DNA of 64,000 bases from Candidatus Bathyarchaeia archaeon (GTDB taxonomy: Archaea; Thermoproteota; Bathyarchaeia; 40CM-2-53-6; DTGE01). The DNA lies in assembly GCA_038852285.1 (NCBI GenBank), contig JAWCKG010000005.1:16812-80811 (forward strand), in the 5' to 3' direction. A program made the translations under genes and the position numbers. The number at the start of each line of letters is the position of its first letter. Position 1 is the first letter of the stretch. The notes beneath the pieces were generated by a model that saw only the letters and a list, made by a program, of their open reading frames with translations, searched no databases and was not told the origin of the DNA. Of this stretch, positions 16,460-59,533 are shown piece after piece.

Positions 16460-16756
16460 TTATAATTCTTCCTCCTGATTAAGCTCGCAAATTTTTAGTT
16501 GCCCATTTATATTTAAAATATAGTATTTACAACGAATCTGAAATACACCTAAATTATCCTTTTAAGCGGTTTTAAGGTGTTTGAACGCCGTTTTAGTAAG
16601 CCTAAATCTTGTCATATTCGCATTATAACTAGCCACATAATTTACACTTAAAAGTTTTGTCAATAAATGCTTATCCTGGCCTCTTTCATTTCCTATTCTT
16701 ATAAATTATTTGGTGGGTTAATGTTGTTAATTTAGGGGAATGCGAGTTAATTACTG

Positions 16757-17581: not shown

Positions 17582-17750
17582 CTTAGGTGGGTTTTAAGCC
17601 TGGATTTAAAGTTCACTGTCTCAGGCAGGTTTTTATATATATGCTGTTCTGAGCCATAACCGTTTGGTGTTTCGTATGGTGGCGGAGCCTTGGATTGGGC
17701 CTAAGTGGATTTCGAGTCGATGGAACTTCGATGAAGCAGTGTTGAAGGAA

Positions 17751-18899: not shown

Positions 18900-19004
18900 A
18901 ACGTTTAAGCCTCAAAACTTCAAATCCCAGTCACCTCTAATTTCTTTAACCTTAACTGTAACGATACCGTTTAAACGGCGAGGACGCTGAGGAGGGGCTG
19001 AAGG

Positions 19005-30721: not shown

Positions 30722-31148
30722 TCAACTCCGTAGAGGATTCCTTCAAGGGGTTTGGGCCAAGCCTCTTCAATTCCTCAACGAACTCCCTTACCTTCCTCGA
30801 GAACTCCTCTCCTTCAGAGGCGGATATCCACTCCAATCTAAGCCTTTCCGGCTCGACGCCGAGCTGTGTTAGGAGAAGCTTTAGGATTTGAACTCTGTTC
30901 CGAGCCTTCAGATTCCCGTTGACATAGTGGCAGTCGCTAGGGGGGTGGCAGCCACCTATGAATACGCCGTCGGCGCCTTTTTTGAGGGCCTCCAAGACGA
31001 ATTCAGGGTTTACTCGACCAGTGCACATAACTCTGACGATTTTCAGGTTCGGAGGGTACTGAAACTTGCTTGTACCAGCCATGTCCGCGCCTGCGTATGT
31101 GCACCAATTGCAGGCGAAACAAACTATGTTAGGTTCGAATTCGGACAT
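30708..31148 (-). CDS. mvhD: MvhD-like [2Fe-2S] electron-transfer subunit
   Basis: 146 aa with CFACNWC... Cys pairs. Positioned between hdrA and mvhG. Confidence 0.75.
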   Translation of the reverse strand: MSEFEPNIVCFACNWCTYAGADMAGTSKFQYPPNLKIVRVMCTGRVNPEFVLEALKKGADGVFIGGCHPPSDCHYVNGNLKARNRVQILKLLLTQLGVEPERLRLEWISASEGEEFSRKVREFVEELKRLGPNPLKESSTELSELE

Positions 31149-31151
31149 CGG

Positions 31152-33140
31152 TTAACGCCTCACTGTGGACAAAATGGCTTCAACCTCGCTCTTCAACTGC
31201 TCATCTGTGAAATGCCTCATTTTAATCGCGCCTGAGGGACATGTGGCGCCGCAGACGCCGCATCCTTTACATAGAACTTGGTTGACCTTAGACCTCTTCA
31301 TTCCCTCTCTGACTTCGAGCTCGATCGCGTTGAAGAAGCAGGCCTGAACGCATAGACCGCAGCCCCCACATCGGTCCTCGTCAACCTCGGCTGTTATCGG
31401 CTCGACGGTAACCACTCCCTTAGATAAGAGGGCTGACGCCCTGCTGGCCGCGGCGCTGGCCTGAGCCACCGTGTCCGGTATGTCTTTAGGCCCCTGGGCG
31501 GTGCCGCAAACATATATGCCATCCGTGAACGTTTCAACCGGCCTAAGCTTTGGGTGGGCTTCAGCTAAGAATCCGTCAGGAGTCGTTGAAAGCTTCAGTA
31601 TGGTTCTCAGCTCCTCGACATCGGATGGAATTAGCCCGGCGGCCAACACGACGAGGTCGAATTCTTCCTCGAACACCTCACCCAGATAGGTGTTTTCATA
31701 TCTTAACCTTAAGTTTCCGGAGACGTCTTCAAGCACCTCAGCGACCCGGCCCCTCACCACTTTCACCCCTTCTCCTTGCACCCTTTCCAGAAACTCCTCG
31801 TATCCTTTCCCGAAGCATCTCAAATCTGTGTAAAAGATGACCACATCCGAGCTTGGATCCTTTTCTTTAACCTGGTGTGCTTGCTTGACGGAGGCCATAC
31901 AGCATATCCTAGAGCAGTACTTGTTGGAGTTTACATCCCTAGATCCGACGCATTGTAGGAAAGCTACCCTTCGAGGCGGCTTACGGTCGGAAGGCCTAAG
32001 TATTTGACCATAGGTGGGCCCTGAGGCGCTGACCATCCGCTCGAACTCTAGGTTTGTTATCACGTTTTTGTATCTTCCATACCCATATTCATATTTCTGT
32101 GAGCAGTCGTATGGTTCGTACCCGGTGGCGATGACGATCGCCCCTACCTTGAGCTTCACCTCCACGGGTTTCTGATCAAAGTCCACCGCCTTTTCAGGGC
32201 AAAACTTCTCGCATACCCTGCAAACGCCTTTCTGATGGTACAGGCAGTGCTCTGGGTCTATGGTGTACTTTAAAGGAACAGCCTGTGGGAACGGGATGTA
32301 TATGGCTTTCCGCTCGCCGAGGCCCATGTCGAACTCGTTGGGAACCCTGACGGGGCATTTTTCAGCGCATAACCCGCAGGCCCTGCACAATTCTTCTCGA
32401 ACAAACCTAGGCTTCCTTAAAACGGTGACTTCGAAGCCTCCTACATTACCCCCCACGGACTTTACTTCGGAGTAGACGAGCAATTCGATGTTTTCGTGTC
32501 TCGAGGCCTCTACCATTTTCGGCGTCAGTATACATGAGGAACAATCTAACGTTGGAAACGTCTTGTCAAGTTGAGCCATATGTCCCCCGAGGGAGGGTTG
32601 CTTCTCAACCAAGTAGACTTTGAAGCCTTGATCCGCTAAGTCGAGTGAGGCTTGAATGCCGGCTACGCCACCACCCACCACTAAGACAGATTTTTCCACC
32701 TCTATGGTAAGGGGTTCAAGAGGCTCATTATGGAGGCTTTTCATCACCGCGGCGGCTACCAGAGCCTTGGCCTTCTCCGTAGCCGCTTCTTTTTGGTTCA
32801 TATGAACCCAGGAGCATTGCTCCCTGATGTTCGCTACCTCCAGCAGGTAGGGGTTGAGTCCCGACTCCTTCACCGTCCTCCTGAATGTTTCCTCATGCAT
32901 CCTCGGCGAGCATGCCGCCACAACCACGCGATTTAATCCCCGTTGCTTCACGTTGTCCTTTATCAATCCTTGTCCTGGGTCGGAGCAGAGGTAAACATAG
33001 TGGGTTGAAAACTCTACCCCGGGAAGTTTCCCAGAGAACTCAGCCAAGGCCTCCACGTTTACTGTTCCGGCGATGTTGCTTCCACAATGGCATATGAAGA
33101 CGCCTATTCTCACAGGCTCTTTTAGAGGCTCATCCTTCAC
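31152..33140 (-). CDS. hdrA: Heterodisulfide reductase subunit A (FAD, multiple Fe-S)
   Basis: 662 aa with the GGGVAG FAD motif, several CxxCxxCxxxCP ferredoxin motifs, and an N-terminal Cys cluster. Confidence 0.9.
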   Translation of the reverse strand: MKDEPLKEPVRIGVFICHCGSNIAGTVNVEALAEFSGKLPGVEFSTHYVYLCSDPGQGLIKDNVKQRGLNRVVVAACSPRMHEETFRRTVKESGLNPYLLEVANIREQCSWVHMNQKEAATEKAKALVAAAVMKSLHNEPLEPLTIEVEKSVLVVGGGVAGIQASLDLADQGFKVYLVEKQPSLGGHMAQLDKTFPTLDCSSCILTPKMVEASRHENIELLVYSEVKSVGGNVGGFEVTVLRKPRFVREELCRACGLCAEKCPVRVPNEFDMGLGERKAIYIPFPQAVPLKYTIDPEHCLYHQKGVCRVCEKFCPEKAVDFDQKPVEVKLKVGAIVIATGYEPYDCSQKYEYGYGRYKNVITNLEFERMVSASGPTYGQILRPSDRKPPRRVAFLQCVGSRDVNSNKYCSRICCMASVKQAHQVKEKDPSSDVVIFYTDLRCFGKGYEEFLERVQGEGVKVVRGRVAEVLEDVSGNLRLRYENTYLGEVFEEEFDLVVLAAGLIPSDVEELRTILKLSTTPDGFLAEAHPKLRPVETFTDGIYVCGTAQGPKDIPDTVAQASAAASRASALLSKGVVTVEPITAEVDEDRCGGCGLCVQACFFNAIELEVREGMKRSKVNQVLCKGCGVCGATCPSGAIKMRHFTDEQLKSEVEAILSTVRR

Positions 33141-34030
33141 TGGACGCTCACCTTGGTGATCTTCCTTAAAAACGGCTGGGTAGATATGGCGTGGGCCTGT
33201 AACCCCAGAAGTCTTGGGTTTAAGCCAAACGCCAACCCTAGTAGCTGGGTTAAATGGACGACTGGTATGTTATATTCTAAGCCCTTCTTCTCGGCTAGCT
33301 CCCTTTGACCTCTATCGAACTGTAGGTGGCAAAAAGCACATACGTTTAATATGCAATCTGCTTGCGACGCCTTTACGTTCTCCAACTTCTCCTTCGTCAT
33401 GTCTAAGGCGAGCTCCAAGTTGGAGGACCTTACCCCTCCGCCTGCTCCGCAACACATGTGCTTGTCCTTATAATCGACGCTTTCGGCCCCTAGGTTTCGA
33501 ACCAACTCATCCACAAATACGGGTTTCTCAGGGTTATCGATCTTTTTCAGAGTTCCAGGCCTCAGAAGATGACATCCATAGTGCACGGCGATTTTCAATC
33601 CAGTCAAGCTCTGACTCAGCCTTTTCACTTGGTCCAAATGTCCCTCATATATCAGCTTGGCGAAGTGATGAACCTCCACGTTTCCCCTGTAAATCCTTCC
33701 AGTTTTAGAAAGGAGCGCATTCACGGTTTTCCTTGTTTCCTCTTCATTTTTGAGCGTATTGTTTGCTTCAAAGAGGGTCCCGAAGCATCCGTTACACAAG
33801 GTAACCACGTCAGCGCGGTTTTCCTCCGCTATGGCAAGGTTTCGAGCCGCCACCGTCAACCAGGTTTGTTCACTAAAAGAGCCAACAACCCCGGGTGCGG
33901 GGCAGCATGAAGCTCCAAGCATGTCTTTCAAATTCACCCCGAGTTTATTGAAAACCATCTTGGTGGCGGATTCTATGCCAGGATACCTATTAGGGACGAT
34001 GCACCCTAGGAACAGGGAGTAACTCGTCAA
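33137..34030 (-). CDS. hdrB: Heterodisulfide reductase subunit B (two CCG domains)
   Basis: CCPAPG and CCGAGGG CCG-domain signatures. 4-nt overlap with hdrA. Confidence 0.85.
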   Translation of the reverse strand: MTSYSLFLGCIVPNRYPGIESATKMVFNKLGVNLKDMLGASCCPAPGVVGSFSEQTWLTVAARNLAIAEENRADVVTLCNGCFGTLFEANNTLKNEEETRKTVNALLSKTGRIYRGNVEVHHFAKLIYEGHLDQVKRLSQSLTGLKIAVHYGCHLLRPGTLKKIDNPEKPVFVDELVRNLGAESVDYKDKHMCCGAGGGVRSSNLELALDMTKEKLENVKASQADCILNVCAFCHLQFDRGQRELAEKKGLEYNIPVVHLTQLLGLAFGLNPRLLGLQAHAISTQPFLRKITKVSVQ

Positions 34031-34539
34031 CCAGTCATCCTCCTGAAACCAGTGGCCTCCAAGATGGTTTCAAGCTCCTTCAGCGATTCAGGGTAGCTGT
34101 GGACGGTCGGAGGTAGCTCGCTCAAACCTAGGCTTTTCCTGACAGCCCTCACTTCATCGTTTATCGGCACCAAGTGACCTGTATCACAAAATAGCCGGGC
34201 CACCTTTTGATGAGCGGCCTTCATGAACCCCTTTCGAACGGCGATATTCCTCAGCCTCTTTATGACCGAGGTTGGCTGGGCGTCACGGGGGCATCGATCA
34301 AAACAGACATAGCAGGTGGTGCATAGCCACAAATCATCGGAGTTTAACACATCTTCGAAACCCATAAGAACCTTTTCCATCAACCGCCTCACCCTTAACT
34401 GTGTCCTTCGACCAGATGGACAGCTACCCGTACAAGCCCCGCATTGAACGCATTTCAGAAGATTTCGACTATGGGATATGAGTTCATCTAATACGGTTTC
34501 AACGGCTCGGGATCGACTTTCTTGGATGGACGTGGGCAA
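34027..34539 (-). CDS. hdrC: Heterodisulfide reductase subunit C (2x[4Fe-4S])
   Basis: CVQCGACTGSCP and CTTCYVCFDRCP motifs. Overlaps the hdrB start. Confidence 0.85.
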   Translation of the reverse strand: MPTSIQESRSRAVETVLDELISHSRNLLKCVQCGACTGSCPSGRRTQLRVRRLMEKVLMGFEDVLNSDDLWLCTTCYVCFDRCPRDAQPTSVIKRLRNIAVRKGFMKAAHQKVARLFCDTGHLVPINDEVRAVRKSLGLSELPPTVHSYPESLKELETILEATGFRRMTG

Positions 34540-44093: not shown

Positions 44094-45362
44094 ATGAAGG
44101 TCAAGTTAAGGTACGGTGAAAGGTTTCTGAACCTTGAGTTGAAAGATGAGAAGATAGTTTTCGACCTAGACATAGCTGACCACCCCTCGATTCAAAACAT
44201 GGAGGATCGACTTCGGCTCGAGCTGAAGAGGCCTCATTCCTCCCATCCCATCTCGTCGATCGCTGGAGCTGAGTCAAAAGTAGCCTTGCTCGTCGACGAC
44301 CTTACACGACCAACCCCCCAGAGTATCCTTCTCCCCATAATTCTAGGAGAGTTGGAAAAGGCTGGAGTTAAGAGTCATAACGTTAAGGTGATCGTCGCTT
44401 TGGGAACTCATAGACCTATGAGCAGTCAAGAGATCGAAGACAGGTTCGGAGAGGTGGCTGAGAAATATGAGGTTGTGAACCATGACCCCAAGGATTCGAA
44501 GGCGTTAACGAACATCGGTGCCACAGGTAAAGGCTTCCCGATCATGATTAACCGAGAATTATGGGAGGCGAACCTAACGATCGGTGTCGGTAACATCGTC
44601 CCCCATATGTACGCTGGGTGGGCTGGAGGGGGGAAAATCGTGCTTCCCGGGGTTTCTGGAGAGCAGACCACGGGTGGAATACACCTTCTTGGAGGAAGAA
44701 TTAGGCCGGCGTTCAAGTTTCTAGGCAGATTAGACCACGAAGTGAGAAGGTTAATAGACGAAGTCGCCTTAAAGTCAAGGTTAGGCTACATTGTTAACAC
44801 AGTGTTAAACAGAGATAGAAGGGTATGCGGTCTAACGGTGGGGCATCCTGTAGAGGCGTTCAAGAAAGGCGTTGCGTTCGCTGAGAAAATCTATAGGCAA
44901 ACCATTCCAGAGCCAGCCGACCTTGTCATCGTCTCCAGCTATCCTGCGGATGTCGATTACTGGCAAGCCATCAAAGGGGTTGTTTCAGCCAGCCTAGCGG
45001 TTAAGCCTGGAGGGGTTGTGTTATTGGTCACCCCCTGCCCTGAGGGAATTTCACCAACCCACAGAGCGATGAGGGAGTACGGATCCTACGGGTATGAGGA
45101 GTTAAATAAGATGGTGGAGGAAGGCGATATCGAAGACGCTGTGGCGGCTGGAACTCTCCTCTACCACGCCCAGCTTAGGGAGAAAGCCAGAATCATCATT
45201 TACTCGGACGGCTTAAAGGAGAAAGACGCTGAAGCCCTAGGCGTGGCCTACGCCGGCGACTTTGAGGAAGGCTTGAAGTTGGCTGAGGAATTCTTGGGAG
45301 AAAAAAAACCCAAAATCGGGTTGATACGTAATAGCGAGGTCCTTCCAACCCTTCCCATCTAA
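44094..45362 (+). CDS. LarA-like protein (nickel-pincer lactate racemase family, DUF2088)
   Basis: LVDDLTRPTP and ALGTHRP motifs characteristic of LarA. Confidence 0.7.
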   Translation: MKVKLRYGERFLNLELKDEKIVFDLDIADHPSIQNMEDRLRLELKRPHSSHPISSIAGAESKVALLVDDLTRPTPQSILLPIILGELEKAGVKSHNVKVIVALGTHRPMSSQEIEDRFGEVAEKYEVVNHDPKDSKALTNIGATGKGFPIMINRELWEANLTIGVGNIVPHMYAGWAGGGKIVLPGVSGEQTTGGIHLLGGRIRPAFKFLGRLDHEVRRLIDEVALKSRLGYIVNTVLNRDRRVCGLTVGHPVEAFKKGVAFAEKIYRQTIPEPADLVIVSSYPADVDYWQAIKGVVSASLAVKPGGVVLLVTPCPEGISPTHRAMREYGSYGYEELNKMVEEGDIEDAVAAGTLLYHAQLREKARIIIYSDGLKEKDAEALGVAYAGDFEEGLKLAEEFLGEKKPKIGLIRNSEVLPTLPI

Positions 45363-45390
45363 CCATCAATTCGATTCTTCAGGTTATCTG

Positions 45391-46572
45391 TCATCGATAC
45401 CCCCTTAACCCTGCTGCCAGCAAGATAAGAGCCGCCGAGAACATCGAAGTTAAGCTTAACATCAAAGTTGAGAAAGGCATAAGGACCGCCATAGAGCCGG
45501 CTATCGCCCTACCGATGGCCCCCCCTATGTCAGCTGAAGCCCACAGCGCCGCGATGGCCACGCTTAAATCCTCTGGGGGCTGGGTGTCGGTGAGCAGCGC
45601 TGAGGATGGTGGAACACGAATGCCCCAGGCGACACCGTATATCAGCATACCCAACGCTAAGTAGATGAAGCCGCGGGCCAGCGCCAGCGTGGTAAAGGCT
45701 AAGGCCGATAACGCGAAGCCGATCATCACAGGCTTCTTCCTACCAATTCTATCTGAGATCGAGCCTATCGGAATCCTCACCAAGGCGTTTAATCCTCCGA
45801 GTAGGGTGAATAGAACCGCGATGATGAATGGTGGCAAAAGCAGCTCGCGTGCCCCATATACGGGGAAGATGACTTGGAAAACTCCGTCGGCCACGAAGAA
45901 CATGACCGTGGCGAGGCAGAGAGTTGAAACTTCTCTGCGTTTAAGGATCTCAAAGAGGTGGAGCGCGGAGTCGAGTTTTGAGCCGTCTAAATTTCTCCAC
46001 CGGGTCTCCGTGGCCTTAAGCTCCCCGGAGGCTGCCAAAGCGGCGAGGGTGAGCAAACCTAAAGCTGGGAAAATTATGAGGGTGATGATAAGGGTTTTAA
46101 ACTCGAAGACTCTGAGGAGAACGCTTCCCAACGCTGGGCCGATGACCATGGCCATGCCGATGGAGAAGTAGTATCTACCTGAAACCATCCCTATCTTACC
46201 AGGAGGAGCTAGGTTAAGAGCCGTTGAGGCGATTATCGGACCGAAGGACGCGGAAGATAAACCGTACATAATGAGGATCGGCGCCAAGACGCGGGATGAT
46301 TTCGCTAGGTAGAGCAGTATGAAGGAGAGAATGTGGACAACGTAAGCGGATGATATGAACGGCCAGACTCTACGCTTCCTAGCCGCCACTCCGAAAGGAA
46401 CCTTCGTTAACAAGGTCGTCAGGGAGAGAGACCCCATGATCCATCCTACCTCCACTAATGAGGCCCCTAACTCCAAGGCGTACAGCGGGAATATTGGGGA
46501 AACAGCTTGCCAACCGACGAAGAAGGCGAATGACATCCATGTAATCACGTCTATACGTCTCCCCACGTCCAT
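45391..46572 (-). CDS. MFS transporter
   Basis: 12 predicted TM segments and MFS loop motifs (GSISDRIGRKK). Confidence 0.8.
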   Translation of the reverse strand: MDVGRRIDVITWMSFAFFVGWQAVSPIFPLYALELGASLVEVGWIMGSLSLTTLLTKVPFGVAARKRRVWPFISSAYVVHILSFILLYLAKSSRVLAPILIMYGLSSASFGPIIASTALNLAPPGKIGMVSGRYYFSIGMAMVIGPALGSVLLRVFEFKTLIITLIIFPALGLLTLAALAASGELKATETRWRNLDGSKLDSALHLFEILKRREVSTLCLATVMFFVADGVFQVIFPVYGARELLLPPFIIAVLFTLLGGLNALVRIPIGSISDRIGRKKPVMIGFALSALAFTTLALARGFIYLALGMLIYGVAWGIRVPPSSALLTDTQPPEDLSVAIAALWASADIGGAIGRAIAGSMAVLMPFSTLMLSLTSMFSAALILLAAGLRGYR

Positions 46573-48931: not shown

Positions 48932-49035
48932 GCGGGGGTTGCCAAGTCAGGTCAAAGGCGCAGGGCTTAGGACCTACATCAACGTAGGAAACCCTGTCCC
49001 GAAGGGGTTCGTGGGTTCGAATCCCACCCCCCGCA
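48932..49035 (+). tRNA. tRNA-Leu(UAG) with a roughly 19-nt intron in the anticodon loop and a long variable arm. No encoded CCA.
   Basis: Acceptor GCGGGGG pairs with CCCCCGC. T-arm is GTGGG-TTCGAAT-CCCAC. Anticodon stem is CAGGG/CCCTG, loop CTTAGG with the intron at 48972..48990. Variable arm is TCCCGAAGGGGTTC. Confidence 0.8.
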
Positions 49036-51214: not shown

Positions 51215-51861
51215 ACTCAACGGAACCTTCTCTAGGTTAGGAAGATTTCGCAACTAGACAAGCCTTGCGTAAAACTTAGAGCTTTGATTATGCGAATTCC
51301 CCTTAACGATTTACCTTCTTCCATCTTATCTCGGAAACATCCCCTCATCGTACCGGAAAGGCCGTTTCCTTGGCATACCAGGGTCCATAGTAGGCTCAGG
51401 CCATTTTAGTCGCAGGCATTTATCTAGTCATGGCAGGTCGGACAAAGATATATACGGTTCAAGGGCGACACGTTGTCGAGGGGCATAGGAGCGTGTAAGA
51501 CAACCTCAGTGCTTAGGGTTCATCCTGCTGACACTGGAATGGCTGATCCATCGGCCAACTTTTATCACCGCGATTCTGTGGCCAAATCTAACGTTTTCAT
51601 ATTATGGATTGCTGTGAAGGAGGAGGATTAATATCCCATACTTGGTGAAGGTTACGAAAAATACGTTAGGAATGTACGGACGTTCATACCTAGAATAGGG
51701 GGTCAGCCCCTCTCTGCAGAGCCCCTAGGAGCACCGCATGAAGAAGTGCTCCTTCATGGAAGAGAATGTGTTATTTTAGACTAATTTCCACGTTGTTTGG
51801 GTTGCTATGAATATGAGCCTTATTGCGCAAACCTTTTAAAAAAACTCTATCAACTTTATAG

Positions 51862-53250
51862 TTGATGCCTATGGTTGAAATTAAGGAGAAATTGGAACCT
51901 TTTTTTAACCCGAGCTCCGTGGCAATAATAGGCGCTACTACTAGAACTGGGGCCGGCGCGTTCAACGTTATGGAGAACATGATACGGTTTGGCTACGAGG
52001 GCGAAATTTACCCAGTGAACCCGAGGTATGAGGAGGTTCTAGGAAGGAAGTGCTATAAGGACATTAAGGACGTCGATGGAAAGGTGGATCTTGCTTTAAT
52101 AGCCATTCCTAGGCACATAGTCCCCGGCGTTGTGAAGGACTGCGCGACAAAGAGTATAAACTCGGTCATAATCGTGAGTCAAGGATTCGCGGAGGTTGGA
52201 GGGGAAGGCAAGAAGTTTCAAGATGAAATTGTAGAGACGGCGAAGAAAACTGGAATGAGAATATTGGGTCCGAACACTTTAGGAACCCATAACTTCTTCG
52301 ACAACTTCACATCTTCGTTCATACCCCTTAAGAAGAGGGATTATGAGCCCATCGGCATCATCTGTCAGACCGGGCTCTTCTTCGCCGGGTTCCCCAGGTT
52401 TAGGTACGGAAAGGCCGTAGATGTGGGAGGATGCTGCGATATAGACCCAGTAGACATGGTCAGATATTACGCTGAGGATCCAAACATAAAGCAGATTTTC
52501 GTCCATATGGAAGGCCTTCGGCCGGGTCGAGGCAGAGACTTCCTCGAGGCCGCTAGGGAAGCGAAGGGTAGGGGAAAAGACCTCATCGTTATGAAGGTCG
52601 GGGAAACTGAAACTGGGAAAAAGGCGATAATATCCCATACCGGCTCACTAGCTGTAGAGGATAGGGTGTTCGAAGGAGCTTTACGGCAAGTTGAGGTTCC
52701 ACGCGTTAGGGATTATACCGAGCTGCAAACAGTCAGCCACGCCTTACTTAAGCTTCCTAAGATGAGGGGGAACAGGTTAGCGATGCTGACGCATCATGGA
52801 GCCTCAGGCGTGATGGCGGTGGACGCAGCGGAAGAGTTTGGTTTAAAGTTCGCTGAACTGTCGGAGGAGACAAAGAAGGCTGTACAGGAGCTTTCACCAG
52901 CATGGCTTCCAATCGGAAACCCAATAGACATCTGGCCTGGGTTAATGGGGGGGCCTGAAAAGATGCATGAAACTGCCCTTAAAGCCGTCTTGGAGGATAA
53001 AAACGTGGACGGTGTACTCCTCTCCATTCATATAGCTGACTACAGCCCCTGGCCGATTGGAACCTACGGCCACATCGAAGCCCTCAGAAAGCTTGCTCCC
53101 CAGTACGATAAGCCAGTGATCGTGGTGCCAATAGGCACGGAGCAGGAGGGCACAAGAAGAGGTCTGGAGGAGGTTAAAAACGTGGCGGTGTTTGACAACA
53201 TAAGGGACGCTTTTAAGGCGTTCTCAGCATTAGCGCCCCCTGAGGTTTAG
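51862..53250 (+). CDS. ADP-forming acyl-CoA synthetase alpha subunit
   Basis: CoA-binding N-domain SVAIIGATTRTGAGAFNV, 462 aa. Directly followed by the beta subunit. Confidence 0.85.
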   Translation: MMPMVEIKEKLEPFFNPSSVAIIGATTRTGAGAFNVMENMIRFGYEGEIYPVNPRYEEVLGRKCYKDIKDVDGKVDLALIAIPRHIVPGVVKDCATKSINSVIIVSQGFAEVGGEGKKFQDEIVETAKKTGMRILGPNTLGTHNFFDNFTSSFIPLKKRDYEPIGIICQTGLFFAGFPRFRYGKAVDVGGCCDIDPVDMVRYYAEDPNIKQIFVHMEGLRPGRGRDFLEAAREAKGRGKDLIVMKVGETETGKKAIISHTGSLAVEDRVFEGALRQVEVPRVRDYTELQTVSHALLKLPKMRGNRLAMLTHHGASGVMAVDAAEEFGLKFAELSEETKKAVQELSPAWLPIGNPIDIWPGLMGGPEKMHETALKAVLEDKNVDGVLLSIHIADYSPWPIGTYGHIEALRKLAPQYDKPVIVVPIGTEQEGTRRGLEEVKNVAVFDNIRDAFKAFSALAPPEV

Positions 53251-53251
53251 G

Positions 53252-53986
53252 GTGAGGAGGATGAGGTCCAAGATTTTACAGGAGCTTTCAGCGAAGGGGG
53301 TAGAGCTCCTCAGCGAATATGAGGCTAGAATCATCCTTCAAGAATATGGCATCCCATGCCCCAAGGAGGTGATGGTCGATTACCGAGAGGGAGAGAAGGG
53401 CTCAGAGTACTTAAGAGAGCTCAAAAAGATTGAAGAATGGCCGGGGTATCCGCTGTTTTTCAAAGTGGTGTCCCGCGACATAAAGTCAGCTACAGACGCT
53501 AACGCGATAAGGAGGGCCACCTCGGATGTCGAGGCCGCCCCTCTAATAGACGCGATTATAAGCAACGCAAAAAAGTATAAAGAAGGCATAAAAATTGAGG
53601 GGATTCTGGCCAGCGAAGACGTTTCCACCCATGAAACCCGAGAGATGCTCATCGGGTCCACGGTTAACGAGCAGTTCGGCCACCTCATCTCCCTAGGATT
53701 CGGGGGCGTTTACGTAGAAGTTTACAGAGACGTGGAGTTTAGAGTAATCCCCATCAAGGAACTGGACGTCCACAACATGATCAAGCATTTAAGAGGAAGA
53801 GAGTTGCTTGGAGCGTTCAGAACGGCGAGACCTGTGGACTTGAGGTTGCTTGTTGACACCGTTCTTAAAGTTTCGAAGATGGTTGAGGAAAACCCTGAGA
53901 TAGTTGAGCTAGACATAAATCCCTTGATCGTTGGCCCCGACCGAGCTGTAGCCGTGGACACGTTGATCAGGATGCGGGCGAAGTAG
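53252..53986 (+). CDS. ADP-forming acyl-CoA synthetase beta subunit (ATP-grasp)
   Basis: 244 aa ATP-grasp protein. Starts 2 nt after the alpha stop. Confidence 0.8.
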   Translation: MRRMRSKILQELSAKGVELLSEYEARIILQEYGIPCPKEVMVDYREGEKGSEYLRELKKIEEWPGYPLFFKVVSRDIKSATDANAIRRATSDVEAAPLIDAIISNAKKYKEGIKIEGILASEDVSTHETREMLIGSTVNEQFGHLISLGFGGVYVEVYRDVEFRVIPIKELDVHNMIKHLRGRELLGAFRTARPVDLRLLVDTVLKVSKMVEENPEIVELDINPLIVGPDRAVAVDTLIRMRAK

Positions 53987-53987
53987 C

Positions 53988-56702
53988 GTGGAGCTTATAC
54001 CCACATATTGCTACCAGTGCTATAATGGTCCAGACCCCATACTGGTAAAGGTGGAAGACGGTTTCGCCGTTGGAGTCGAGCCGAACTACGCCCTAGCCTC
54101 CAAACACCATTCTGGTGGGAGGGTTTGCTCAAACGCCTATGGATTGATTGAGAAACTATATAATCCGCACAGGGTGAAGACGCCTTTACTTAGAACGAAT
54201 CCGAACAAGGGGGGAAATGAAGACCCTGGTTGGAAGGAGATAAGCTGGGGCGAAGCCCTAGACATCTTAGCAGACAGGTTTCGGAAGGTGAAGGAGAAGG
54301 GAGGCGTGGACGAGAACGGATACCCGAGGATGGCTCTGACCCTAGGGGCCGCGGGCACTCCTGAGGGCCACTTCGGCCTGTTACCAACCTTTTTATCAAC
54401 GATGTTTAGGTGGGTGGGGCCTATGGACTTGACTATAGGAACCGGTCAAGGCGTAAAATGCTACCATTCAGAGCATGTATATGGTGAATTCTGGCATAGG
54501 GCCTTCATGGTTGTCGCCGATCTCCCCAGAACGAGATATTTAATCTCTTTTGGCCACAACGACGTTGGCTCCGACGGTGTCACCGCTTGGAGGTTGGCTC
54601 AGGCCAAGGAGGATGGGTTAAAAATCGTTAAGGTGGAGCCGCATCTTTCGGCCAGCGCGGCCTTCGCGGATAAGGTGGTTTTTATTAAGCCGAAAACGGA
54701 TGCCATGTTCCTCTTCTCCATGATACATGTGATTCTTCATGAAAATAACTGGCGGGAAGTTTGCGACCTAGAGTTCCTAAAGAAAATTACGAATAGCCCC
54801 TATTTGATAGGACCTAACGGATACTACATAAGAGATGTGGAAACAAGAAAGCCATTAGTATGGGATCCCGGTGACGTAAGAGCGAAACGTCACGACGACC
54901 CCTCAATTAAGGACTACGCGTTGGAGGGAAAATTTGAGGTAGGGGGAGTGGAGGTAGGACCTAACGGAGAGGTTTGGGAGCATGAAACCGTTGAATGTAA
55001 GCCCAGCTTTCAACTGCTTATGGCTCATGTGAAGGAGTATACGCCTGAATACGCAGAGAAAGTATGCGAGATTCCTAAAGGCACTGTGAGGGATGTAACT
55101 AAAGAGTTCCTTGAAAACGCATGCGTAGGAATGATGGTGGAGGTGAACGGAGAGAAGCTTCCTTACAGGCCTGTCGCCATAGAGTTGGGAAAGACCGTCA
55201 ATAACGGCCCCGGAGGATATGAAACCTGCTGGGCTCGAACGGTATTGCTTTCACTCGTCGGAGCGCTGGAAGTCCCAGGAGGAGCCATCGGCTCAGGAAG
55301 CAGGTTAAACCCTCCTTACGAGATGCGGTGGATGAGCGTAGAACCCGGCCCGGATGGCTTTATGCTTCAAAATCTAAATCCAACGGGCAAGGAGGAGTGG
55401 CCTCCAAAGGTGATGTTTAGAGGGCCCTTCACGGCGCTTTGCCCCATCATGGGATCCCGAGGATGGGCAAGCGGAATAGCCCCATTTACGCTGGCCTGGA
55501 TGTTCATGGATGAGACCCCTGAGGGCTGGCCTAATCCATCACCTCCCGACATCTGGATCATATACCGGGCAAACCCGCTCAGAACCCAGTGGGACCCAGG
55601 CCTCATGGAAAGGGTGGTGAAGAAGTGCCCGTTCATAACCCACATCACCTACATCATAGATGAGACAAGCTGGTACGCCGACCTGGTCCTACCCGACCAC
55701 ACAGACTTGGAAGGATACCAACTAACTCCAATCTTCTCCAAGCATTGGTATAGCCTGTGGGATCACTACGGCTACATCCTAAAGCAACCGGTCGTGAAGC
55801 CCATTCACAACACGATGGACATGACGGACATCATAGTCGAGTTAATGGACAGGTTGGGACTGCTGGTAGAGTTTAACTCTCGGGTTAACAGGGGGTCCGG
55901 CACTGGGATCCCACTAGCCGGCGGAAACTACGATTTTAGGCTGAAGGAGGATGAAAAACACGGTTCAGAGGAGATCTGGGATAGAATATGTAAAGCGGCT
56001 ACAGCGATGTTAAGCGACGGAAAAGAAACATACGGATTAGACTGGTTTAAGAAGAACAGCATTTATTTAAAGCCTTACCCAAAACCTGAGAAATACCTGT
56101 ATTACGTGTTAAAAAAGAAGGGCCTCAGGTTTGAGGTCCCCTATCAGGAAAGCGTCAAGAAAGTTGGAGCTGCGCTTAAAAATAGGCTCCATGAACGGGG
56201 GATTAAATGGTGGGATAGACAGCTTGAAGAATATCAAGCGCTACCGCGCGCGAAGGACTTTTCTAAGTTGTGGGATGAATACTACTTAAAGATTGGAGTG
56301 AACCCTGAAGACTTTGACATGTGGTTGATCGCCAGCAGAAGCCCCAACTTGGTGTGGACGGGCAATGTGTCAAACCGTAGGATGCTTAAAGCGGCGGCGA
56401 GGGCCTTAGACTTCGGAGGCGTTGTGATAAACAGGGAGGCGGCTGGTGAAAGGGGGATTGAACATGGAGACGCCGTCATCGTGGAGTCTCCCTTCGGGAA
56501 AAAGAAGAGTAGGGTGATCGTAAGGGAGGGACAAAGGCCAGATGTGGCCCTGCTCGTCGGCCAGCTCGGCCAATGGGTAGCCCCATACGCTAAGGATGTA
56601 CCCGCACCGAATGTAAGCGACTTCGTCAAGCTTGACCTAGACATTCTAGACGCTGGAGGGTCCTCATGCGACCTGACTCGAGTAAGAATCTATAAGGCAT
56701 AA
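53988..56702 (+). CDS. Molybdopterin (bis-PGD) oxidoreductase catalytic subunit. Cytoplasmic (no Tat signal), with a degenerate FS0 motif.
   Basis: 904 aa, DMSO-reductase-family architecture. The N-terminus reads CYQCYNGP (CxxCxxxP in place of CxxCxxxC) with a fourth Cys at RVCSNAYG. There is no twin-arginine leader. The GTG start lies 2 nt after the ACD-beta stop. Confidence 0.85.
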   Translation: MELIPTYCYQCYNGPDPILVKVEDGFAVGVEPNYALASKHHSGGRVCSNAYGLIEKLYNPHRVKTPLLRTNPNKGGNEDPGWKEISWGEALDILADRFRKVKEKGGVDENGYPRMALTLGAAGTPEGHFGLLPTFLSTMFRWVGPMDLTIGTGQGVKCYHSEHVYGEFWHRAFMVVADLPRTRYLISFGHNDVGSDGVTAWRLAQAKEDGLKIVKVEPHLSASAAFADKVVFIKPKTDAMFLFSMIHVILHENNWREVCDLEFLKKITNSPYLIGPNGYYIRDVETRKPLVWDPGDVRAKRHDDPSIKDYALEGKFEVGGVEVGPNGEVWEHETVECKPSFQLLMAHVKEYTPEYAEKVCEIPKGTVRDVTKEFLENACVGMMVEVNGEKLPYRPVAIELGKTVNNGPGGYETCWARTVLLSLVGALEVPGGAIGSGSRLNPPYEMRWMSVEPGPDGFMLQNLNPTGKEEWPPKVMFRGPFTALCPIMGSRGWASGIAPFTLAWMFMDETPEGWPNPSPPDIWIIYRANPLRTQWDPGLMERVVKKCPFITHITYIIDETSWYADLVLPDHTDLEGYQLTPIFSKHWYSLWDHYGYILKQPVVKPIHNTMDMTDIIVELMDRLGLLVEFNSRVNRGSGTGIPLAGGNYDFRLKEDEKHGSEEIWDRICKAATAMLSDGKETYGLDWFKKNSIYLKPYPKPEKYLYYVLKKKGLRFEVPYQESVKKVGAALKNRLHERGIKWWDRQLEEYQALPRAKDFSKLWDEYYLKIGVNPEDFDMWLIASRSPNLVWTGNVSNRRMLKAAARALDFGGVVINREAAGERGIEHGDAVIVESPFGKKKSRVIVREGQRPDVALLVGQLGQWVAPYAKDVPAPNVSDFVKLDLDILDAGGSSCDLTRVRIYKA

Positions 56703-56715
56703 AGAGGGCGACGAC

Positions 56716-57363
56716 ATGACGCATTGGGGGATGGTGATAGACCTAGGGAAATGCATCGGCTGCATGACATGTACAGTCGCGTGTGAATGCGAAAACTTCC
56801 TTCCTTATGGACTCTCATGGGCGAAGGTTGCGGATTTCGAAGATGGAAAATACCCCGCGGTTAAAAGAACGTTCCTTCCAACGCTATGCATGCATTGTGA
56901 TGAAGCTCCCTGTGTGAAGACGTGCCCCACTGAGGCTACGATGAGGCGTGAAGACGGAGTCGTCATAACCGACTATGACAAATGCATCGGCTGCAGGCTC
57001 TGCATGATCGCTTGCCCCTACGATTCCCGCTCATACGTGGAGAAACTAGAGCTACCTTTGCCGTTATCTTTAATGAAAAAAGAGGTTAGGTCCAAGTATC
57101 AGCTCATAAAAGATCAAACGGCGTCAAAATGCACCTTCTGCGCCCACAGAATAGACAAGGCGAAGGAAACAGGCAAAACACCTGGCAAGGATCCTGAAGT
57201 AACACCGATATGCGTAAACACCTGCGTAGGAAACGCCAGGTATTTCGGAGACCTAGAAAACCCGGAAAGCGAGGTTTCAAAGCTCGCGAAAAGCGACAGA
57301 GCCTTCGTGCTTTACGAGGAAGCAAAAACCCGTCCTTCCGTATACTACTTAAAGAGGAGGTGA
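56716..57363 (+). CDS. Four-cluster 4Fe-4S ferredoxin subunit (DmsB/PsrB-like)
   Basis: CIGCMTCTVAC, CMHCDEAPC, CIGCRLCMIACP and CTFC...C motifs. Confidence 0.85.
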   Translation: MTHWGMVIDLGKCIGCMTCTVACECENFLPYGLSWAKVADFEDGKYPAVKRTFLPTLCMHCDEAPCVKTCPTEATMRREDGVVITDYDKCIGCRLCMIACPYDSRSYVEKLELPLPLSLMKKEVRSKYQLIKDQTASKCTFCAHRIDKAKETGKTPGKDPEVTPICVNTCVGNARYFGDLENPESEVSKLAKSDRAFVLYEEAKTRPSVYYLKRR

Positions 57364-57372
57364 TCGACATCC

Positions 57373-59343
57373 TTGAAGGAGCAGCGAATACCGGTGGAGG
57401 TCGTTAACCCCGTCGGATATAAAATACCTGAAATATTATATGATCTTCGCCAACGACCTCTGGAGTTCAACCTGGAGGAGCTTAAGAAGAGGCTACGCAG
57501 CATCCGCAAGTATACTGTCGACAACTTGGACTCACTACTCCAGCGTTTAGAGAGGTCTTTGAAACGATACCCGGAGGTCAGTCTCATCTATGCCCGCGAC
57601 GCTGAGGAGGCGGTGGAAGCTTTGAAGAATGTATGCGGATCGATTAGAAGGCTTTCGGTAAATAAGTCAAACACTGTGGAGGAGTTGAGGAAACCGTTAG
57701 CCGAGCAGGGCTTCGAAATCGAAGAAACATATTATCAACAATTTGAGGACTTCACACCTGTTAAGGAGAGGAAGCCCTACTGGCAGATGCCGGAGGTTCC
57801 CTCAGAGGTTAAGTGGAGGTCGTTTACCTCCAACCCATTTCGATGGGAAGTGAATAGTGGAGGGTTAAGTGAAAGCGGTAGGGTCATCCTGTTCGGCATT
57901 AACGCCATCTCAGCCGAGGACGGCACAATATTCTTCTTAGAGCATTCAAGAAACATTTCGGGAGGACTGCGCGAAGCATCACATATGATATTTTTAGTTG
58001 GCCTGGAGAAGGTGGTGCGCAACCGAGAAGACGGAGTTTTTCAAACTCGATCTGCAGGTTTATTTGGCTTTGAAGGCATTACGTCTGAGTTGAAGCTCCA
58101 AGGCGCGGAGCGTGAGCCACTATACGAGAGCCGAGGGCAGGCCTTGAACCCAAGAATCTCCATCATCCTACTGGATAATGGGAGAAGGGCCATTCAGAAA
58201 AGAGAAGACCTCAGAGAATTGCTTTACTGTATTGGTTGCCGGACATGCAACGCCGTGTGTCCATTCTCTTATTCTTCCATGCGCGCAGGGGAATGGACGA
58301 AAGGACCTAGAAACTGGATTAAAATGTTTAGGGAGACGTTCATGCAGGAGGCGCGGACTAACGCAGAAATGGTTTGGGATTGCACGACCTGTAAGTCATG
58401 TGAGGCGCATTGTCCACTTGAAATAGGGCAGGTCTATAAGTTCATTAAGATGAGGGAACAATTGGTCGAGGAGGGGAGGGGGCCTCTACCTCAACATGTC
58501 CGCTTCGGCGAAAGTGTGAAGGCGAACTACAATCCGTACCGAGAGCCGCATAGTGAAAGGTTCGCGTGGCTTAACGAGACCTTAAAGCGAAAGGCTGAAA
58601 CAGTGTACTTCGCGGGTTGCACCGCATGTTACAGGGAAAAGTCCATCGCTGAATCTACTGTTAAAATTTTGAATTCTCTTAACATAAACTTCGGCGTTCT
58701 CGGAGAACAGGAGTGGTGTTGTGGTTCACCTCTACTGCGAACTGGTCAAAGAAGGCTAGCCCTCGAAGTGGCTAAACACAACGTCAACTCGATAGTGGAA
58801 AGTGGAGCGAAAAGAGTTGTTACGTCTTGCGCTGGATGCTATGTAACTATGAAAGAAGACTATGAGAGGCTGCTCGGCCTCAAGCCTGATTTCGATGTGT
58901 TACATATCTCGGAGCTTCTATACTCACTCTTGGAAATGGGGAACCTAACGTTTAAAAAGGGATTAAACATGGTCGCAACCTACCATGACCCATGCCACTT
59001 AAGCAGAAGCCGAGCAGTATTCCTACCTGAGCCGGAAAGGCATAGGGTTTATGAGCCCCCAAGACGGGTTCTCCAAGCCATACCGGAATTGAAGTTTGTT
59101 GAAATGCTAAGAAGCCGAGACCATGCATGGTGCTGTGGCGCGGGAGGGGGCGTTAAAGCAGCCTCCCCAGACGTGGCGGTGTGGATGGCAACTGAGAGGA
59201 TTAAAGAGGCGGAAGAGGCCAAGGCTCAGGTAATGGTAACCGCCTGCCCATTCTGCGTGCGAAACCTGCGAGACGCTACGGTGGCGGCTAACAAACCAGT
59301 CAGGGTATTCGACCTGACAGAACTCGTATCTCAAGCCTTATAG
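57373..59343 (+). CDS. LUD-domain (LutB-like), 2x[4Fe-4S], two-CCG-domain (HdrD/LutA-like) fusion protein
   Basis: N-terminal LUD/DUF162-like region, CIGCRTCNAVCP and CTTCKSCEAHCP ferredoxin motifs, then CCG signatures (CCGSP; HDPCHLSR...CCGAGGG). No TM helices. Confidence 0.8.
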   Translation: MKEQRIPVEVVNPVGYKIPEILYDLRQRPLEFNLEELKKRLRSIRKYTVDNLDSLLQRLERSLKRYPEVSLIYARDAEEAVEALKNVCGSIRRLSVNKSNTVEELRKPLAEQGFEIEETYYQQFEDFTPVKERKPYWQMPEVPSEVKWRSFTSNPFRWEVNSGGLSESGRVILFGINAISAEDGTIFFLEHSRNISGGLREASHMIFLVGLEKVVRNREDGVFQTRSAGLFGFEGITSELKLQGAEREPLYESRGQALNPRISIILLDNGRRAIQKREDLRELLYCIGCRTCNAVCPFSYSSMRAGEWTKGPRNWIKMFRETFMQEARTNAEMVWDCTTCKSCEAHCPLEIGQVYKFIKMREQLVEEGRGPLPQHVRFGESVKANYNPYREPHSERFAWLNETLKRKAETVYFAGCTACYREKSIAESTVKILNSLNINFGVLGEQEWCCGSPLLRTGQRRLALEVAKHNVNSIVESGAKRVVTSCAGCYVTMKEDYERLLGLKPDFDVLHISELLYSLLEMGNLTFKKGLNMVATYHDPCHLSRSRAVFLPEPERHRVYEPPRRVLQAIPELKFVEMLRSRDHAWCCGAGGGVKAASPDVAVWMATERIKEAEEAKAQVMVTACPFCVRNLRDATVAANKPVRVFDLTELVSQAL

Positions 59344-59390
59344 GCTCCTCGAGGAGTAATGGTAGCGTCATCTGCTCGGCCAACTGTTTT

Positions 59391-59425
59391 ACGTTGAAAA
59401 TTAATTTTTACGTTGAAAATTAATT
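59391..59425. repeat. Exact tandem direct repeat acgttgaaaattaatt x2 (period 19)
   Basis: Identical 16-mers at 59391-59406 and 59410-59425. Confidence 0.8.
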
Positions 59426-59491
59426 AATGAGTGACGAGGCCTCATAAGGGGGCGTTCAACGATTTTTTTTAGAAGGTGCTCCCTTGTCGGG

Positions 59492-59533
59492 GATTGTGAA
59501 GAATGATTAAATGATTGTGAAGAATGATTAAAT
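59492..59533. repeat. Exact tandem direct repeat gattgtgaagaatgattaaat x2 (21-nt unit)
   Basis: Two perfect head-to-tail copies at 59492-59512 and 59513-59533. Confidence 0.85.

Follow-up and report, generated by a model that had tools for sequence, protein, structure and literature searches.

Why would the genes of an ADP-forming acyl-CoA synthetase (ACD) stand directly before those of an apparently cytoplasmic molybdenum or tungsten oxidoreductase, and where would the electrons of such an enzyme go? The question is raised by a five-gene cluster at positions 51862 to 59343 of a 64,000-nucleotide stretch of DNA, here called the window, from a Candidatus Bathyarchaeia archaeon (GenBank assembly GCA_038852285.1, contig JAWCKG010000005.1). 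To our knowledge, PadBCD is the only enzyme with a molybdenum-bis(pyranopterin guanine dinucleotide) cofactor (Mo-bisPGD) known to act on a CoA thioester, and it has been biochemically characterised once, as a membrane enzyme. The analysis presented here suggests that the cluster probably encodes a soluble, cytoplasmic variant of a PadBCD-type arylacetyl-CoA:acceptor oxidoreductase, coupled to an ACD and to an electron-transfer module of the Hdr/Lut type. The chemistry of such a system is probably known already, and what appears to be new is the modular rewiring of its ligase and its membrane anchor.

The five genes, reported on one strand by an earlier first-pass annotation of the window, match the open reading frame (ORF) listing exactly:

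51862-53250, + strand: gene 1, ACD alpha subunit, 462 aa, TTG start (ORF listing)
53252-53986, + strand: gene 2, ACD beta subunit, 244 aa, GTG start (ORF listing)
53988-56702, + strand: gene 3, MopB-type catalytic subunit (MoA), 904 aa, 102 kDa, GTG start
56716-57363, + strand: gene 4, iron-sulfur (FeS) subunit with four [4Fe-4S] clusters, 215 aa, 24 kDa, ATG start
57373-59343, + strand: gene 5, LUD-Fer4-CCG protein, 656 aa, 75 kDa, TTG start

Profile searches of each ORF against Pfam and NCBIfam, which that annotation had proposed, returned an ACD alpha subunit, an ACD beta subunit, a MopB protein, a four-cluster ferredoxin and a LUD/CCG protein in this order.

The Mo/W subunit and its family

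The gene 3 product carries the Pfam domains Molybdopterin and Molydop_binding. Its N-terminus opens with the iron-sulfur motif FS0 (VELIPTYCYQC...); there is no twin-arginine translocation (Tat) signal, since the first residues already form this site, and the active site is predicted to be cytoplasmic. The third cysteine of FS0 is replaced (C8-x2-C11-x4-D16...C47), a feature invariant in 34 homologues. The pattern across the family, C-x2-C-x2-G-P-D...C between residues 8 and 47 compared with the usual C-x2-C-x3-C...C, would mean that the site holds a [4Fe-4S] centre with an Asp ligand or else a [3Fe-4S] centre. C158, likewise invariant in the 34 homologues, aligns with the conserved cysteine of the ArrA segment SSVCAEAHK, which we take to be a Mo ligand. 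Altogether, more than 200 alignment columns are invariant among the Mo-subunit homologues.

The nearest solved structures in the PDB search were ArrA (E 2e-44) and PsrA/PhsA, and no PadB-like structure was found there. Pyrogallol transhydroxylase and acetylene hydratase were rejected as distant relatives (E 6e-6 and 3e-12, respectively), and with the former among the weakest PDB matches, the analogy to pyrogallol transhydroxylase drawn in the first-pass annotation is not supported. No NCBIfam model claims gene 3, the scores being 152 bits for PhsA (cut-off 694), 106 for ArrA (1600) and 31 for TtrA (1750), and NCBIfam holds no PadB model.

Relatives of gene 3 number thousands of full-length sequences, many of them named phenylacetyl-CoA:acceptor oxidoreductase (PadB) by the Joint Genome Institute (JGI); this product name, derived from KEGG Orthology (KO), is carried by dozens of family members. 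Homologues with 46-77% identity to gene 3 occur in more than 578 genomes of a species-representative collection, from which the best 80 loci were retained, with no Rhodocyclales among them. The homologues of Burkholderiales (among them cultured Ramlibacter), Rokubacteria, Methylomirabilota, Nitrospirae, Planctomycetota, Caldarchaeum and Nitrososphaerales are still 46-50% identical. The genes Rfer_3093/3094 have been annotated as PadB/C in a Comamonadaceae genome (PMC2755013), which fits the Burkholderiales homologues found in this study. A tblastn search of plasmids for the reference PadB gave no match.

Gene 4 matches Fer4_11 and related Pfam families, and its sixteen cysteines make up four cluster motifs. 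Its best matches are ArrB, QrcC, DsrO and TtrB (E 1e-45 to 1e-51), and it is predicted to be an electron-transfer subunit of the PadC/PsrB/ArrB type.

Gene neighbourhoods across 91 loci

Neighbourhoods were surveyed by tblastn with representative queries within 6 kb of the MoA homologue at 91 loci (designated here by L numbers), and representatives were annotated with Pfam and NCBIfam. An FeS subunit is encoded at 85 of the 91 loci, directly downstream of MoA in most, and an NrfD/DmsC-type membrane protein at 65, usually next after the FeS gene. A FlK-like hotdog thioesterase lies immediately upstream of MoA at 40 loci and a metallo-beta-lactamase (MBL)-fold hydrolase is present at 11, making 51 loci with one of these hydrolases. 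PaaK-like ligases (39 loci) and xanthine dehydrogenase (XDH)-type enzymes (22 loci) are also frequent. The usual order in bacteria and most archaea is thioesterase, Mo subunit, four-cluster FeS subunit, NrfD-type anchor and PaaK-like ligase. The top match of the PaaK-like ligases is TIGR02155 (phenylacetate-CoA ligase), with 594, 417 and 411 bits, all under the cut-off of 646.

Further genes extend this picture. The XDH-type genes of L016 (15780-19597) encode 4-hydroxybenzoyl-CoA reductase (gamma, alpha and beta, all three exceeding their NCBIfam equivalog cut-offs), and genes of this type come after the PaaK-like ligase both there and at about 21 other bacterial loci. This reductase acts in the branch that degrades 4-hydroxyphenylacetate. 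In L051 the Mo subunit is directly preceded by genes for indolepyruvate:ferredoxin oxidoreductase (IOR), alpha above the cut-off and beta just below it, and then for the alpha, beta and gamma subunits of a 2-oxoacid:acceptor oxidoreductase, with alpha above its cut-off. L090 encodes a four-subunit enzyme of the pyruvate:ferredoxin oxidoreductase (POR) type, a PaaK-like ligase and an HGD-D protein. Taxa usually held to be aerobic, such as Ramlibacter and Rubrivivax, are among those with 4-hydroxybenzoyl-CoA reductase loci.

In the Pad pathway, the ligase PadJ is followed by alpha-oxidation through PadBCD, via phenylglyoxylyl-CoA and its hydrolysis, and PadEFGHI leads on to benzoyl-CoA (PMC5109826, PMC9765128, PMC4453571). 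Because the operon context of the MoA family follows the logic of this anaerobic pathway, its members are very probably arylacetyl-CoA alpha-oxidising enzymes of the PadBCD type. The analogy to phenylacetyl-CoA:acceptor oxidoreductase suggested in the first-pass annotation has thus gained ground from both the JGI names and the neighbourhoods of the 91 loci.

An archaeal subclade with replaced modules

Two major groups were distinguished in neighbour-joining trees (with bootstrap) of the MoA homologues, a FlK/PaaK group (bootstrap 100%) and a group with MBL-fold hydrolases. Nested among the NrfD/MBL-type loci is a clade with 100% bootstrap that comprises L084, L086, L088, L092, L093 and the window clade, in which the relatives are 74-77% identical to the window Mo subunit. 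Within this larger clade only L084 (MSBL1) keeps the NrfD anchor, which is replaced in the others as follows:

L086 and L088: a 510-aa CCG protein
Window clade: a LUD-Fer4-CCG protein of about 650 aa
L092 (MSBL1), 4035-5890: an MvhD-like (FlpD) protein and an FrhB/FdhB-like F420-binding subunit
L093 (MSBL1), 3624-8216: an HdrA-like and an HdrC-like protein, the HdrC-like, HdrA-like, ACD beta and ACD alpha genes being convergent

The Hdr-like electron exit that had been supposed from the window alone is therefore supported in the form of a module replacement, with a CCG protein at the position of the membrane anchor. L088, L093 and the window clade in turn have an ACD in place of the AMP-forming ligase. 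L088 is especially informative, as its order ACD-ACD-Mo-MBL-FeS-CCG corresponds one-to-one with the bacterial ligase, Mo subunit, thioesterase, FeS subunit and anchor; on account of this correspondence activation is assigned to the ACD and the exit of electrons to the CCG protein. Neither an MBL nor a FlK hydrolase is encoded in the window clade, and the gain of the LUD domain coincides with the loss of the MBL hydrolase in this small sample.

The whole five-gene cluster recurs in metagenome-assembled genomes (MAGs) of Bathyarchaeia (L035) and Brockarchaeota (L083) and on three JGI metagenome contigs (L081, L082 and L091), and this answers the doubt, expressed with the original proposal, that homologues of the Mo subunit might never accompany ACD or LutB-like genes elsewhere. 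The same order is kept by the visible genes of two truncated contigs, L085 from a Thermoplasmatota MAG and L001 from a Hadesarchaea MAG.

Two further observations were made at these loci. A thiamine pyrophosphate (TPP) enzyme adjacent to L081 was considered as a benzoylformate decarboxylase and rejected, being an acetolactate synthase above the TIGR00118 cut-off; the PorA-like gene beside it is an ordinary POR-type alpha subunit (512 vs 550 bits). At L092, a flavoprotein like that at 26614-28305 of the window, a TfrB-like Fer2-Fer4-CCG protein and a fumarase are encoded beside the Mo enzyme.

The ADP-forming synthetase

Both ACD subunits have the features of their superfamily. Gene 1 matches the Pfam families CoA_binding, CoA_binding_2, Succ_CoA_lig and Ligase_CoA_2 and has the phospho-His motif SHTGS at residue 258, while gene 2 matches ATP-grasp_5 (E 1e-47). 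Gene 1 scores 352 bits against TIGR02717 (acetate--CoA ligase, ADP-forming), for which the cut-off is 567, and is therefore not the acetate-specific equivalog but a member of a distinct ACD lineage. Genes 1 and 2 also match the ADP-forming 3-hydroxypropionate- and 4-hydroxybutyrate-CoA ligases of NCBIfam, the latter being the top match of gene 2 (140 bits).

Gene 1 shares 54-57% identity with the ACD alpha subunits encoded beside the MoA homologues of L088 and L093, compared with only 31% for the paralogous ACD alpha at 19005-20402 of the same window. From this difference the ACD of the cluster is a dedicated partner that co-evolves with the Mo subunit, and the Mo subunits of L088 and L093 show a parallel 58-61% identity to that of the window. 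The ACD beta gene lies directly 5' of MoA in L001, L081-L083, L085, L035 and L091, and 178 nt 5' of it in L088.

A gammaproteobacterial MAG (L055) has an 808-aa ORF (5456-7882), 26% identical to ACD alpha over 487 aa, directly upstream of the thioesterase and the Mo subunit. Here an NDP-forming synthetase may have been recruited independently; in the Mo gene of L055 there is a stop codon or a frameshift.

The LUD-Fer4-CCG protein

Gene 5 combines a LUD domain (residues 1-270), two [4Fe-4S] motifs (271-400; C286/289/292/296 and C337/340/343/347) and two CCG domains (401-656). Both CCG motifs are complete in the form CX(n)CCX(n)CXXC, as C416...C449C450...C486xxC489 and C541...C587C588...C625xxC628, and two [4Fe-4S] motifs followed by two CCG domains is the architecture of HdrD. 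The Pfam matches are CCG (E 5e-37), Fer4_8 and LUD, the last with 19.8 bits under a cut-off of 22.6. Full-length orthologues nevertheless carry PF02589, and the N-terminal 275 residues used as a query, with four matches, found LUD-domain proteins, including a 'lactate utilization protein' of 35% identity. All NCBIfam matches remain under their cut-offs, namely TfrB with 254 bits (385), LdhH with 196 (800) and LutB TIGR00273 with 84 (445; E 7.5e-24).

An AlphaFold model computed from a 50-sequence alignment (pLDDT 88.4, pTM 0.88) was compared with known structures by Foldseek. Its best match is the soluble part of Mycobacterium smegmatis EtfD (9ojn), and further matches are both chains of the LutA-LutB model 9a6l (LutA TMt 0.83), HdrB (5odc and 8rvu, TMt about 0.7) and LutC (2g40). 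Judged from this model, gene 5 is a genuine fusion of LutB with a LutA/HdrD-like part, much as the first-pass annotation had described it. The connection with lactate that had been read from the LUD domain found no such backing: the LUD match is under the Pfam cut-off, no LutC gene lies in or near the cluster, the sister clusters are without LUD, and nothing points to lactate as a substrate.

Identity to the orthologues in recurring clusters differs along the protein, from 51-64% in the LUD domain and 48-53% in the ferredoxin part to only 34-36% in the CCG module, whereas stand-alone HdrD-like proteins of about 400 aa in Hadarchaeales and others (named HdrD by JGI) share 59-70% identity with this module. 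Gene 5 is accordingly a mosaic, its CCG module having been swapped for one of the stand-alone HdrD type, an exchange more in keeping with an interchangeable redox adaptor than with a catalytic subunit specific to one substrate. No HdrE-like (cytochrome b) gene occurs in the cluster. The precedents for the fold differ in their acceptors, which are disulfides for HdrB and HdrD and a quinone for EtfD; GlpC and SdhE also reduce quinone. With precedents this varied, the acceptor of gene 5 may be either a disulfide or a quinone.

The orthologue in Brockarchaeota L083 (9245-11215) is one uninterrupted ORF of 656 aa, in which ambiguous bases give a stretch of X. A free LUD protein at this locus, which the deposited annotation (155 aa and 496 aa) would suggest, was rejected, the DNA being a single ORF.

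Transcription and localisation

The two candidate signals that bracket the cluster are:

51834-51841, + strand: TATA-box-like element TTTTAAAA, candidate promoter
59464-59471, + strand: oligo-T run (T8), candidate archaeal terminator, read from the sequence

As the host is an archaeon, promoters were sought by a TATA-motif scan and not by a bacterial promoter/terminator scan. Between 51000 and 60000 the + strand matches WTTTAWAW only at the element TTTTAAAA, which sits 21-30 nt 5' of the candidate start codons at 51862, 51865 and 51871. This placement would be typical of a leaderless archaeal promoter and makes the element a candidate for the promoter of the operon transcript. The true start of gene 1 is likely the ATG at 51865 or 51871 and that of gene 2 possibly the ATG at 53261; GGAGG-like (Shine-Dalgarno-like) motifs occur 5' of genes 2, 4 and 5. 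The T8 run begins 121 nt past the stop codon of gene 5, and the next + strand ORF of at least 80 aa is found only at 60430. Tandem duplications, TTTACGTTGAAAATTAATT twice and GATTGTGAAGAATGATTAAAT twice (59387-59426 and 59493-59533), flank the T8 run.

The spacers between the genes measure 1, 1, 13 and 9 nt. The short spacing described earlier therefore stands, except that the beta stop and the Mo start are separated by 1 nt rather than 2. Gaps so short would leave no room for a separate intergenic promoter or terminator, while promoters may exist inside the coding sequences of the cluster. Given the spacing, the single promoter motif and the synteny, complete in L035, L081/L082, L083 and L091, the proposal that the five genes form one operon is well founded. 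No 19-residue window in any of the five proteins exceeds 1.6 on the Kyte-Doolittle scale, and all five are predicted to be soluble, without transmembrane segments or signal peptides.

Proposed mechanism

At this locus the ACD genes have taken the place of the ligase gene, and we infer that the ACD would activate a free arylacetate (phenylacetate, 4-hydroxyphenylacetate or indoleacetate) to the acyl-CoA, converting ATP to ADP, where the bacterial operons use an AMP-forming ligase of the PaaK type. The family context suggests that the Cys-ligated Mo/W-bisPGD centre of gene 3 would then use water to oxidise the thioester at its alpha-methylene group, removing four electrons and giving the 2-oxoacyl (arylglyoxylyl) level. 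Gene 5 has replaced the gene of the NrfD-type quinol/quinone anchor, and the electrons would presumably reach it from FS0 by way of the four clusters in gene 4 and leave the CCG clusters of gene 5 for a soluble or membrane-surface acceptor. A heterodisulfide-type disulfide, recycled by the HdrABC-MvhADG proteins encoded about 17 kb upstream, would be the preferred acceptor, and a quinone reached peripherally the second choice; the disulfide is proposed with great reserve and forms the weakest step of the scheme. As the clade encodes no thioesterase, it may be speculated that CoA is released by the enzyme itself or by a reversible ACD.

A bolder and unlikely version would carry the electrons of a Mo/W-catalysed C-H hydroxylation of an acyl-CoA through the HdrD-like CCG module to a small disulfide, either a heterodisulfide or another thiol cofactor of non-methanogenic archaea, and have the thiols re-oxidised by the HdrABC-MvhADG system of the window, acting with reduced ferredoxin as an electron-confurcating hydrogenase. 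If this were true, a fermenting archaeon without a respiratory chain would perform an oxidation that bacteria perform only with quinones and nitrate, the enigmatic Hdr/Mvh genes of Bathyarchaeia would gain a physiological role, and the sister exit modules (MvhD with FrhB, HdrA with HdrC) would represent variations on the same theme.

Several points weigh against the assignment as a PadBCD variant. Membership of the PadB group draws on automated KO-derived names and on gene context, the characterised PadB proteins of Thauera aromatica and Aromatoleum EbN1 being outside the comparison. The contig of L086 encodes the CCG partner without any ACD. ACDs are classically ATP-forming in archaeal fermenters. 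The ethylbenzene/1-phenylethanol couple lies at about +30 mV and benzylic hydroxylation couples in general at 0 to +30 mV, while CoM-S-S-CoB lies at about -140 mV; with electrons of such high potential from methylene hydroxylation, a heterodisulfide acceptor would be thermodynamically tight unless cleavage of the thioester pulls the reaction. Genes for IOR, PaaK, Hcr or benzoyl-CoA metabolism were not found near the archaeal loci of the ACD/CCG type, whose neighbours are instead genes for methylmalonyl-CoA mutase, thiolase, GlcD/GlcF-like proteins and formyltetrahydrofolate synthetase (FTHFS). In the window, too, no IOR was seen, and no arylglyoxylate- or aroyl-CoA-processing genes lie near the cluster.

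Alternative explanations

Neighbours of this non-aromatic kind mean that the substrate of the archaeal subclade could differ from the bacterial one. The same Pad-type alpha-oxidation might be applied to, for example, a short-chain or branched acyl-CoA such as propionyl-CoA, giving lactyl- or pyruvyl-CoA, with the ACD, an enzyme typical of such acids, supplying or consuming the thioester. Genes for methylmalonyl-CoA mutase, MeaB and a B12-binding protein near L081, the thiolase near L091, a GlcD/GlcF-like 2-hydroxyacid oxidase both at L083 and at 10989-13883 of the window, and the matches of the ACD to hydroxyacyl-CoA ligases would all suit this explanation, as would the association of the LUD domain with lactate utilisation (PMC3924224). 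It seems unlikely all the same, since the Mo subunit is 46-50% identical to bacterial enzymes in PaaK/IOR/Hcr operons and the more than 200 invariant columns argue for a conserved chemistry and a similar class of substrate, and the neighbouring genes in question lie on other strands or in other operons. The ACD itself is compatible with aryl substrates, given that ACS II of Pyrococcus accepts phenylacetyl- and indoleacetyl-CoA. A change in the direction of the ACD, rather than in the substrate, is envisaged when arylacetyl-CoA is supplied by IOR during peptide fermentation and the synthetase forms ATP, conserving the thioester of arylglyoxylyl-CoA or of a later aroyl-CoA in place of a wasteful thioesterase. 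ACDs are reversible and do make ATP in archaeal fermentations, and the hydrolase found at 51 loci has been lost from the window clade. Another point in its favour is the course of the Pad reaction, in which phenylglyoxylyl-CoA is an intermediate that undergoes hydrolysis (PMC9765128). This is quite unlikely when set against L088, where an ACD and an MBL hydrolase occur together and the ACD is the counterpart of the ligase and not of the hydrolase; the idea that the ACD replaces the thioesterase, weakened by that locus, is retained only as part of this alternative. IOR, moreover, was not seen in the window or the sister loci.

The role of gene 5 has also been considered differently. The Mo subunit might only hydroxylate, and the LutB/LutA-like protein might act as a second catalytic subunit, turning the 2-hydroxy acid into the 2-oxo acid in the way that LutABC oxidises lactate. 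The structural matches to LutB, LutA and LutC, the TIGR00273 match, PF02589 in the orthologues and the coincidence of LUD gain with hydrolase loss, small as the sample is, all speak for such a function, but it is very improbable because L086 and L088 are without LUD and other loci use MvhD with FrhB or HdrA with HdrC at the same position. The missing LutC, the sub-threshold LUD match and the swapped CCG module fit a generic redox module better, and a catalytic gene 5 would still be without a final acceptor. Finally, the Mo and FeS pair could be taken for an inorganic sulfur, arsenic or selenium reductase of the Psr/Phs/Arr/Ttr type to which the ACD is unrelated, seeing that PhsA, ArrA and PsrA are the best NCBIfam and PDB matches of gene 3 and that ArrB and TtrB are among those of gene 4. 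Here the scores lie far under the cut-offs, the missing Tat signal indicates a cytoplasmic active site, and the partners over the 91 loci are CoA ligases, thioesterases, IOR or 2-oxoacid oxidoreductases and 4-hydroxybenzoyl-CoA reductase, with an ACD that co-evolves. By location, scores and context a reductase of this kind is effectively excluded, and the PadBCD-type arylacetyl-CoA oxidoreductase is retained as the probable function.

Other features of the window

Several other genes of the window concern redox and acyl-CoA metabolism. About 17 kb upstream of the cluster, at 28282-34539 on the - strand, lies a complete HdrC-HdrB-HdrA-MvhD-MvhG-MvhA string for a heterodisulfide-reductase/hydrogenase complex in this non-methanogen, its products being Fer4 (170 aa), double-CCG (297 aa), FAD/Fer4 (662 aa), FlpD (146 aa), Oxidored_q6 (321 aa) and NiFeSe_Hases (497 aa) proteins. 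It is adjoined at 26614-28305 (+) by a 563-aa flavoprotein with FAD_binding_2 and Succ_DH_flav_C domains (TfrA/FrdA/NadB type) that has no FeS subunit adjacent. A GlcD-like FAD oxidase of 506 aa stands beside a 403-aa double-CCG protein (GlcF/HdrD-like) at 10989-13883 (-), and a GlcD/GlcF-like pair is also found just upstream of the five-gene cluster in Brockarchaeota L083. With HdrB and gene 5, the 403-aa protein brings the CCG proteins in the 64 kb to at least three.

The region 14022-20402 encodes a tungsten-type aldehyde:ferredoxin oxidoreductase (AFOR_N/AFOR_C, 641 aa) and a 164-aa polyferredoxin. It also holds the second ACD of the window, split around an HMGL-like synthase into beta (16757-17581, -) and alpha (19005-20402, +). 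A LarA-like putative 2-hydroxyacid racemase (Lar_N and LarA_C domains) and a divergent transporter of the major facilitator superfamily (MFS) occupy 44094-46572, some 5-8 kb upstream of the cluster; a link of the LarA-like gene to 2-hydroxy or aryl-lactate metabolism is conceivable.

Between 47500 and 50000 there is a 2.5-kb region with 37% G+C, compared with about 50% elsewhere, and almost no ORFs. A tRNA of 104 nt (48932-49035, +; Rfam 47 bits) that presumably contains an intron lies within it; ARAGORN reported no tRNA in the window, including this one. The region could be the remnant of an integrated element beside a tRNA, and the only repeats around it are short and at chance level.

Significance

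The PadB-like family is large and strongly conserved, and its operon logic of ligase, oxidase, thioesterase and aroyl-CoA processing can be traced in both Bacteria and Archaea. In one archaeal lineage the enzyme has been detached from the membrane and wired to soluble modules of the Hdr, Lut, Mvh and Frh types, with an ADP-forming synthetase dedicated to it. Being soluble by nature, such a complex would lend itself better to structural and mechanistic work, and it poses the bioenergetic question of where strict anaerobes, maybe without quinones, send the relatively high-potential electrons of methylene hydroxylation. The system also bears on the degradation of aromatic amino-acid and lignin-derived acids in sediments by Bathyarchaeia and their relatives, and on the roles of Hdr-like proteins outside methanogens.

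Comparison with known systems

The closest known system is PadBCD of Thauera aromatica, Azoarcus evansii and Aromatoleum aromaticum EbN1. Rhee and Fuchs reportedly purified the phenylacetyl-CoA:acceptor oxidoreductase in 1999 and found a Mo-bisPGD catalytic subunit of about 93 kDa. PadBCD and the window cluster both have a large MopB subunit without an export signal and, next in the gene order, an FeS subunit with four clusters. An arylacetate-CoA ligase and product-processing genes accompany the family as a whole, whereas the window itself has only the ACD. Unlike PadBCD, the window cluster has no PadD-type (NrfD/DmsC-like) anchor but a soluble 75-kDa LUD-Fer4-CCG protein in its stead, its ligase is ADP-forming and not AMP-forming, thioesterase and PadEFGHI genes are missing from it, and its host is an anaerobic archaeon.

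With the Psr/Phs/Arr clade (PsrABC, 2vpw; ArrAB, 6cz7) gene 3 shares the active-site cysteine, the N-terminal FS0 site and a four-cluster partner like PsrB or ArrB. It differs in its predicted cytoplasmic location, in the replaced third cysteine of FS0 and in scores far under the family cut-offs, and its context is that of CoA-ester metabolism instead of chalcogen or arsenate respiration. The ACD resembles the archaeal ACD/ACS I-II enzymes and the ADP-forming hydroxyacyl-CoA ligases in its separate alpha and beta subunits, its domains and its SHTGS motif. It departs from them in falling below the acetate equivalog cut-off, in forming a lineage of its own that co-evolves with the Mo enzyme, and in the role proposed for it, which is to serve a Pad-type pathway as its activating ligase.

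With LutABC/LdhH, gene 5 shares the domain arrangement of LutB (LUD and two [4Fe-4S] motifs), here fused to a LutA-like double CCG part, but it is without a LutC partner, scores well under the equivalogs and stands in a Mo-enzyme operon at the anchor position, and the LUD domain is missing from the sister clusters of the window clade. Two ferredoxin clusters and two complete CCG motifs are also common to HdrD/HdrB, TfrB and EtfD. Compared with these, the cluster of gene 5 is without the HdrE/cytochrome b of HdrDE, and gene 5 itself has neither the transmembrane helices of EtfD nor the [2Fe-2S] domain of TfrB.

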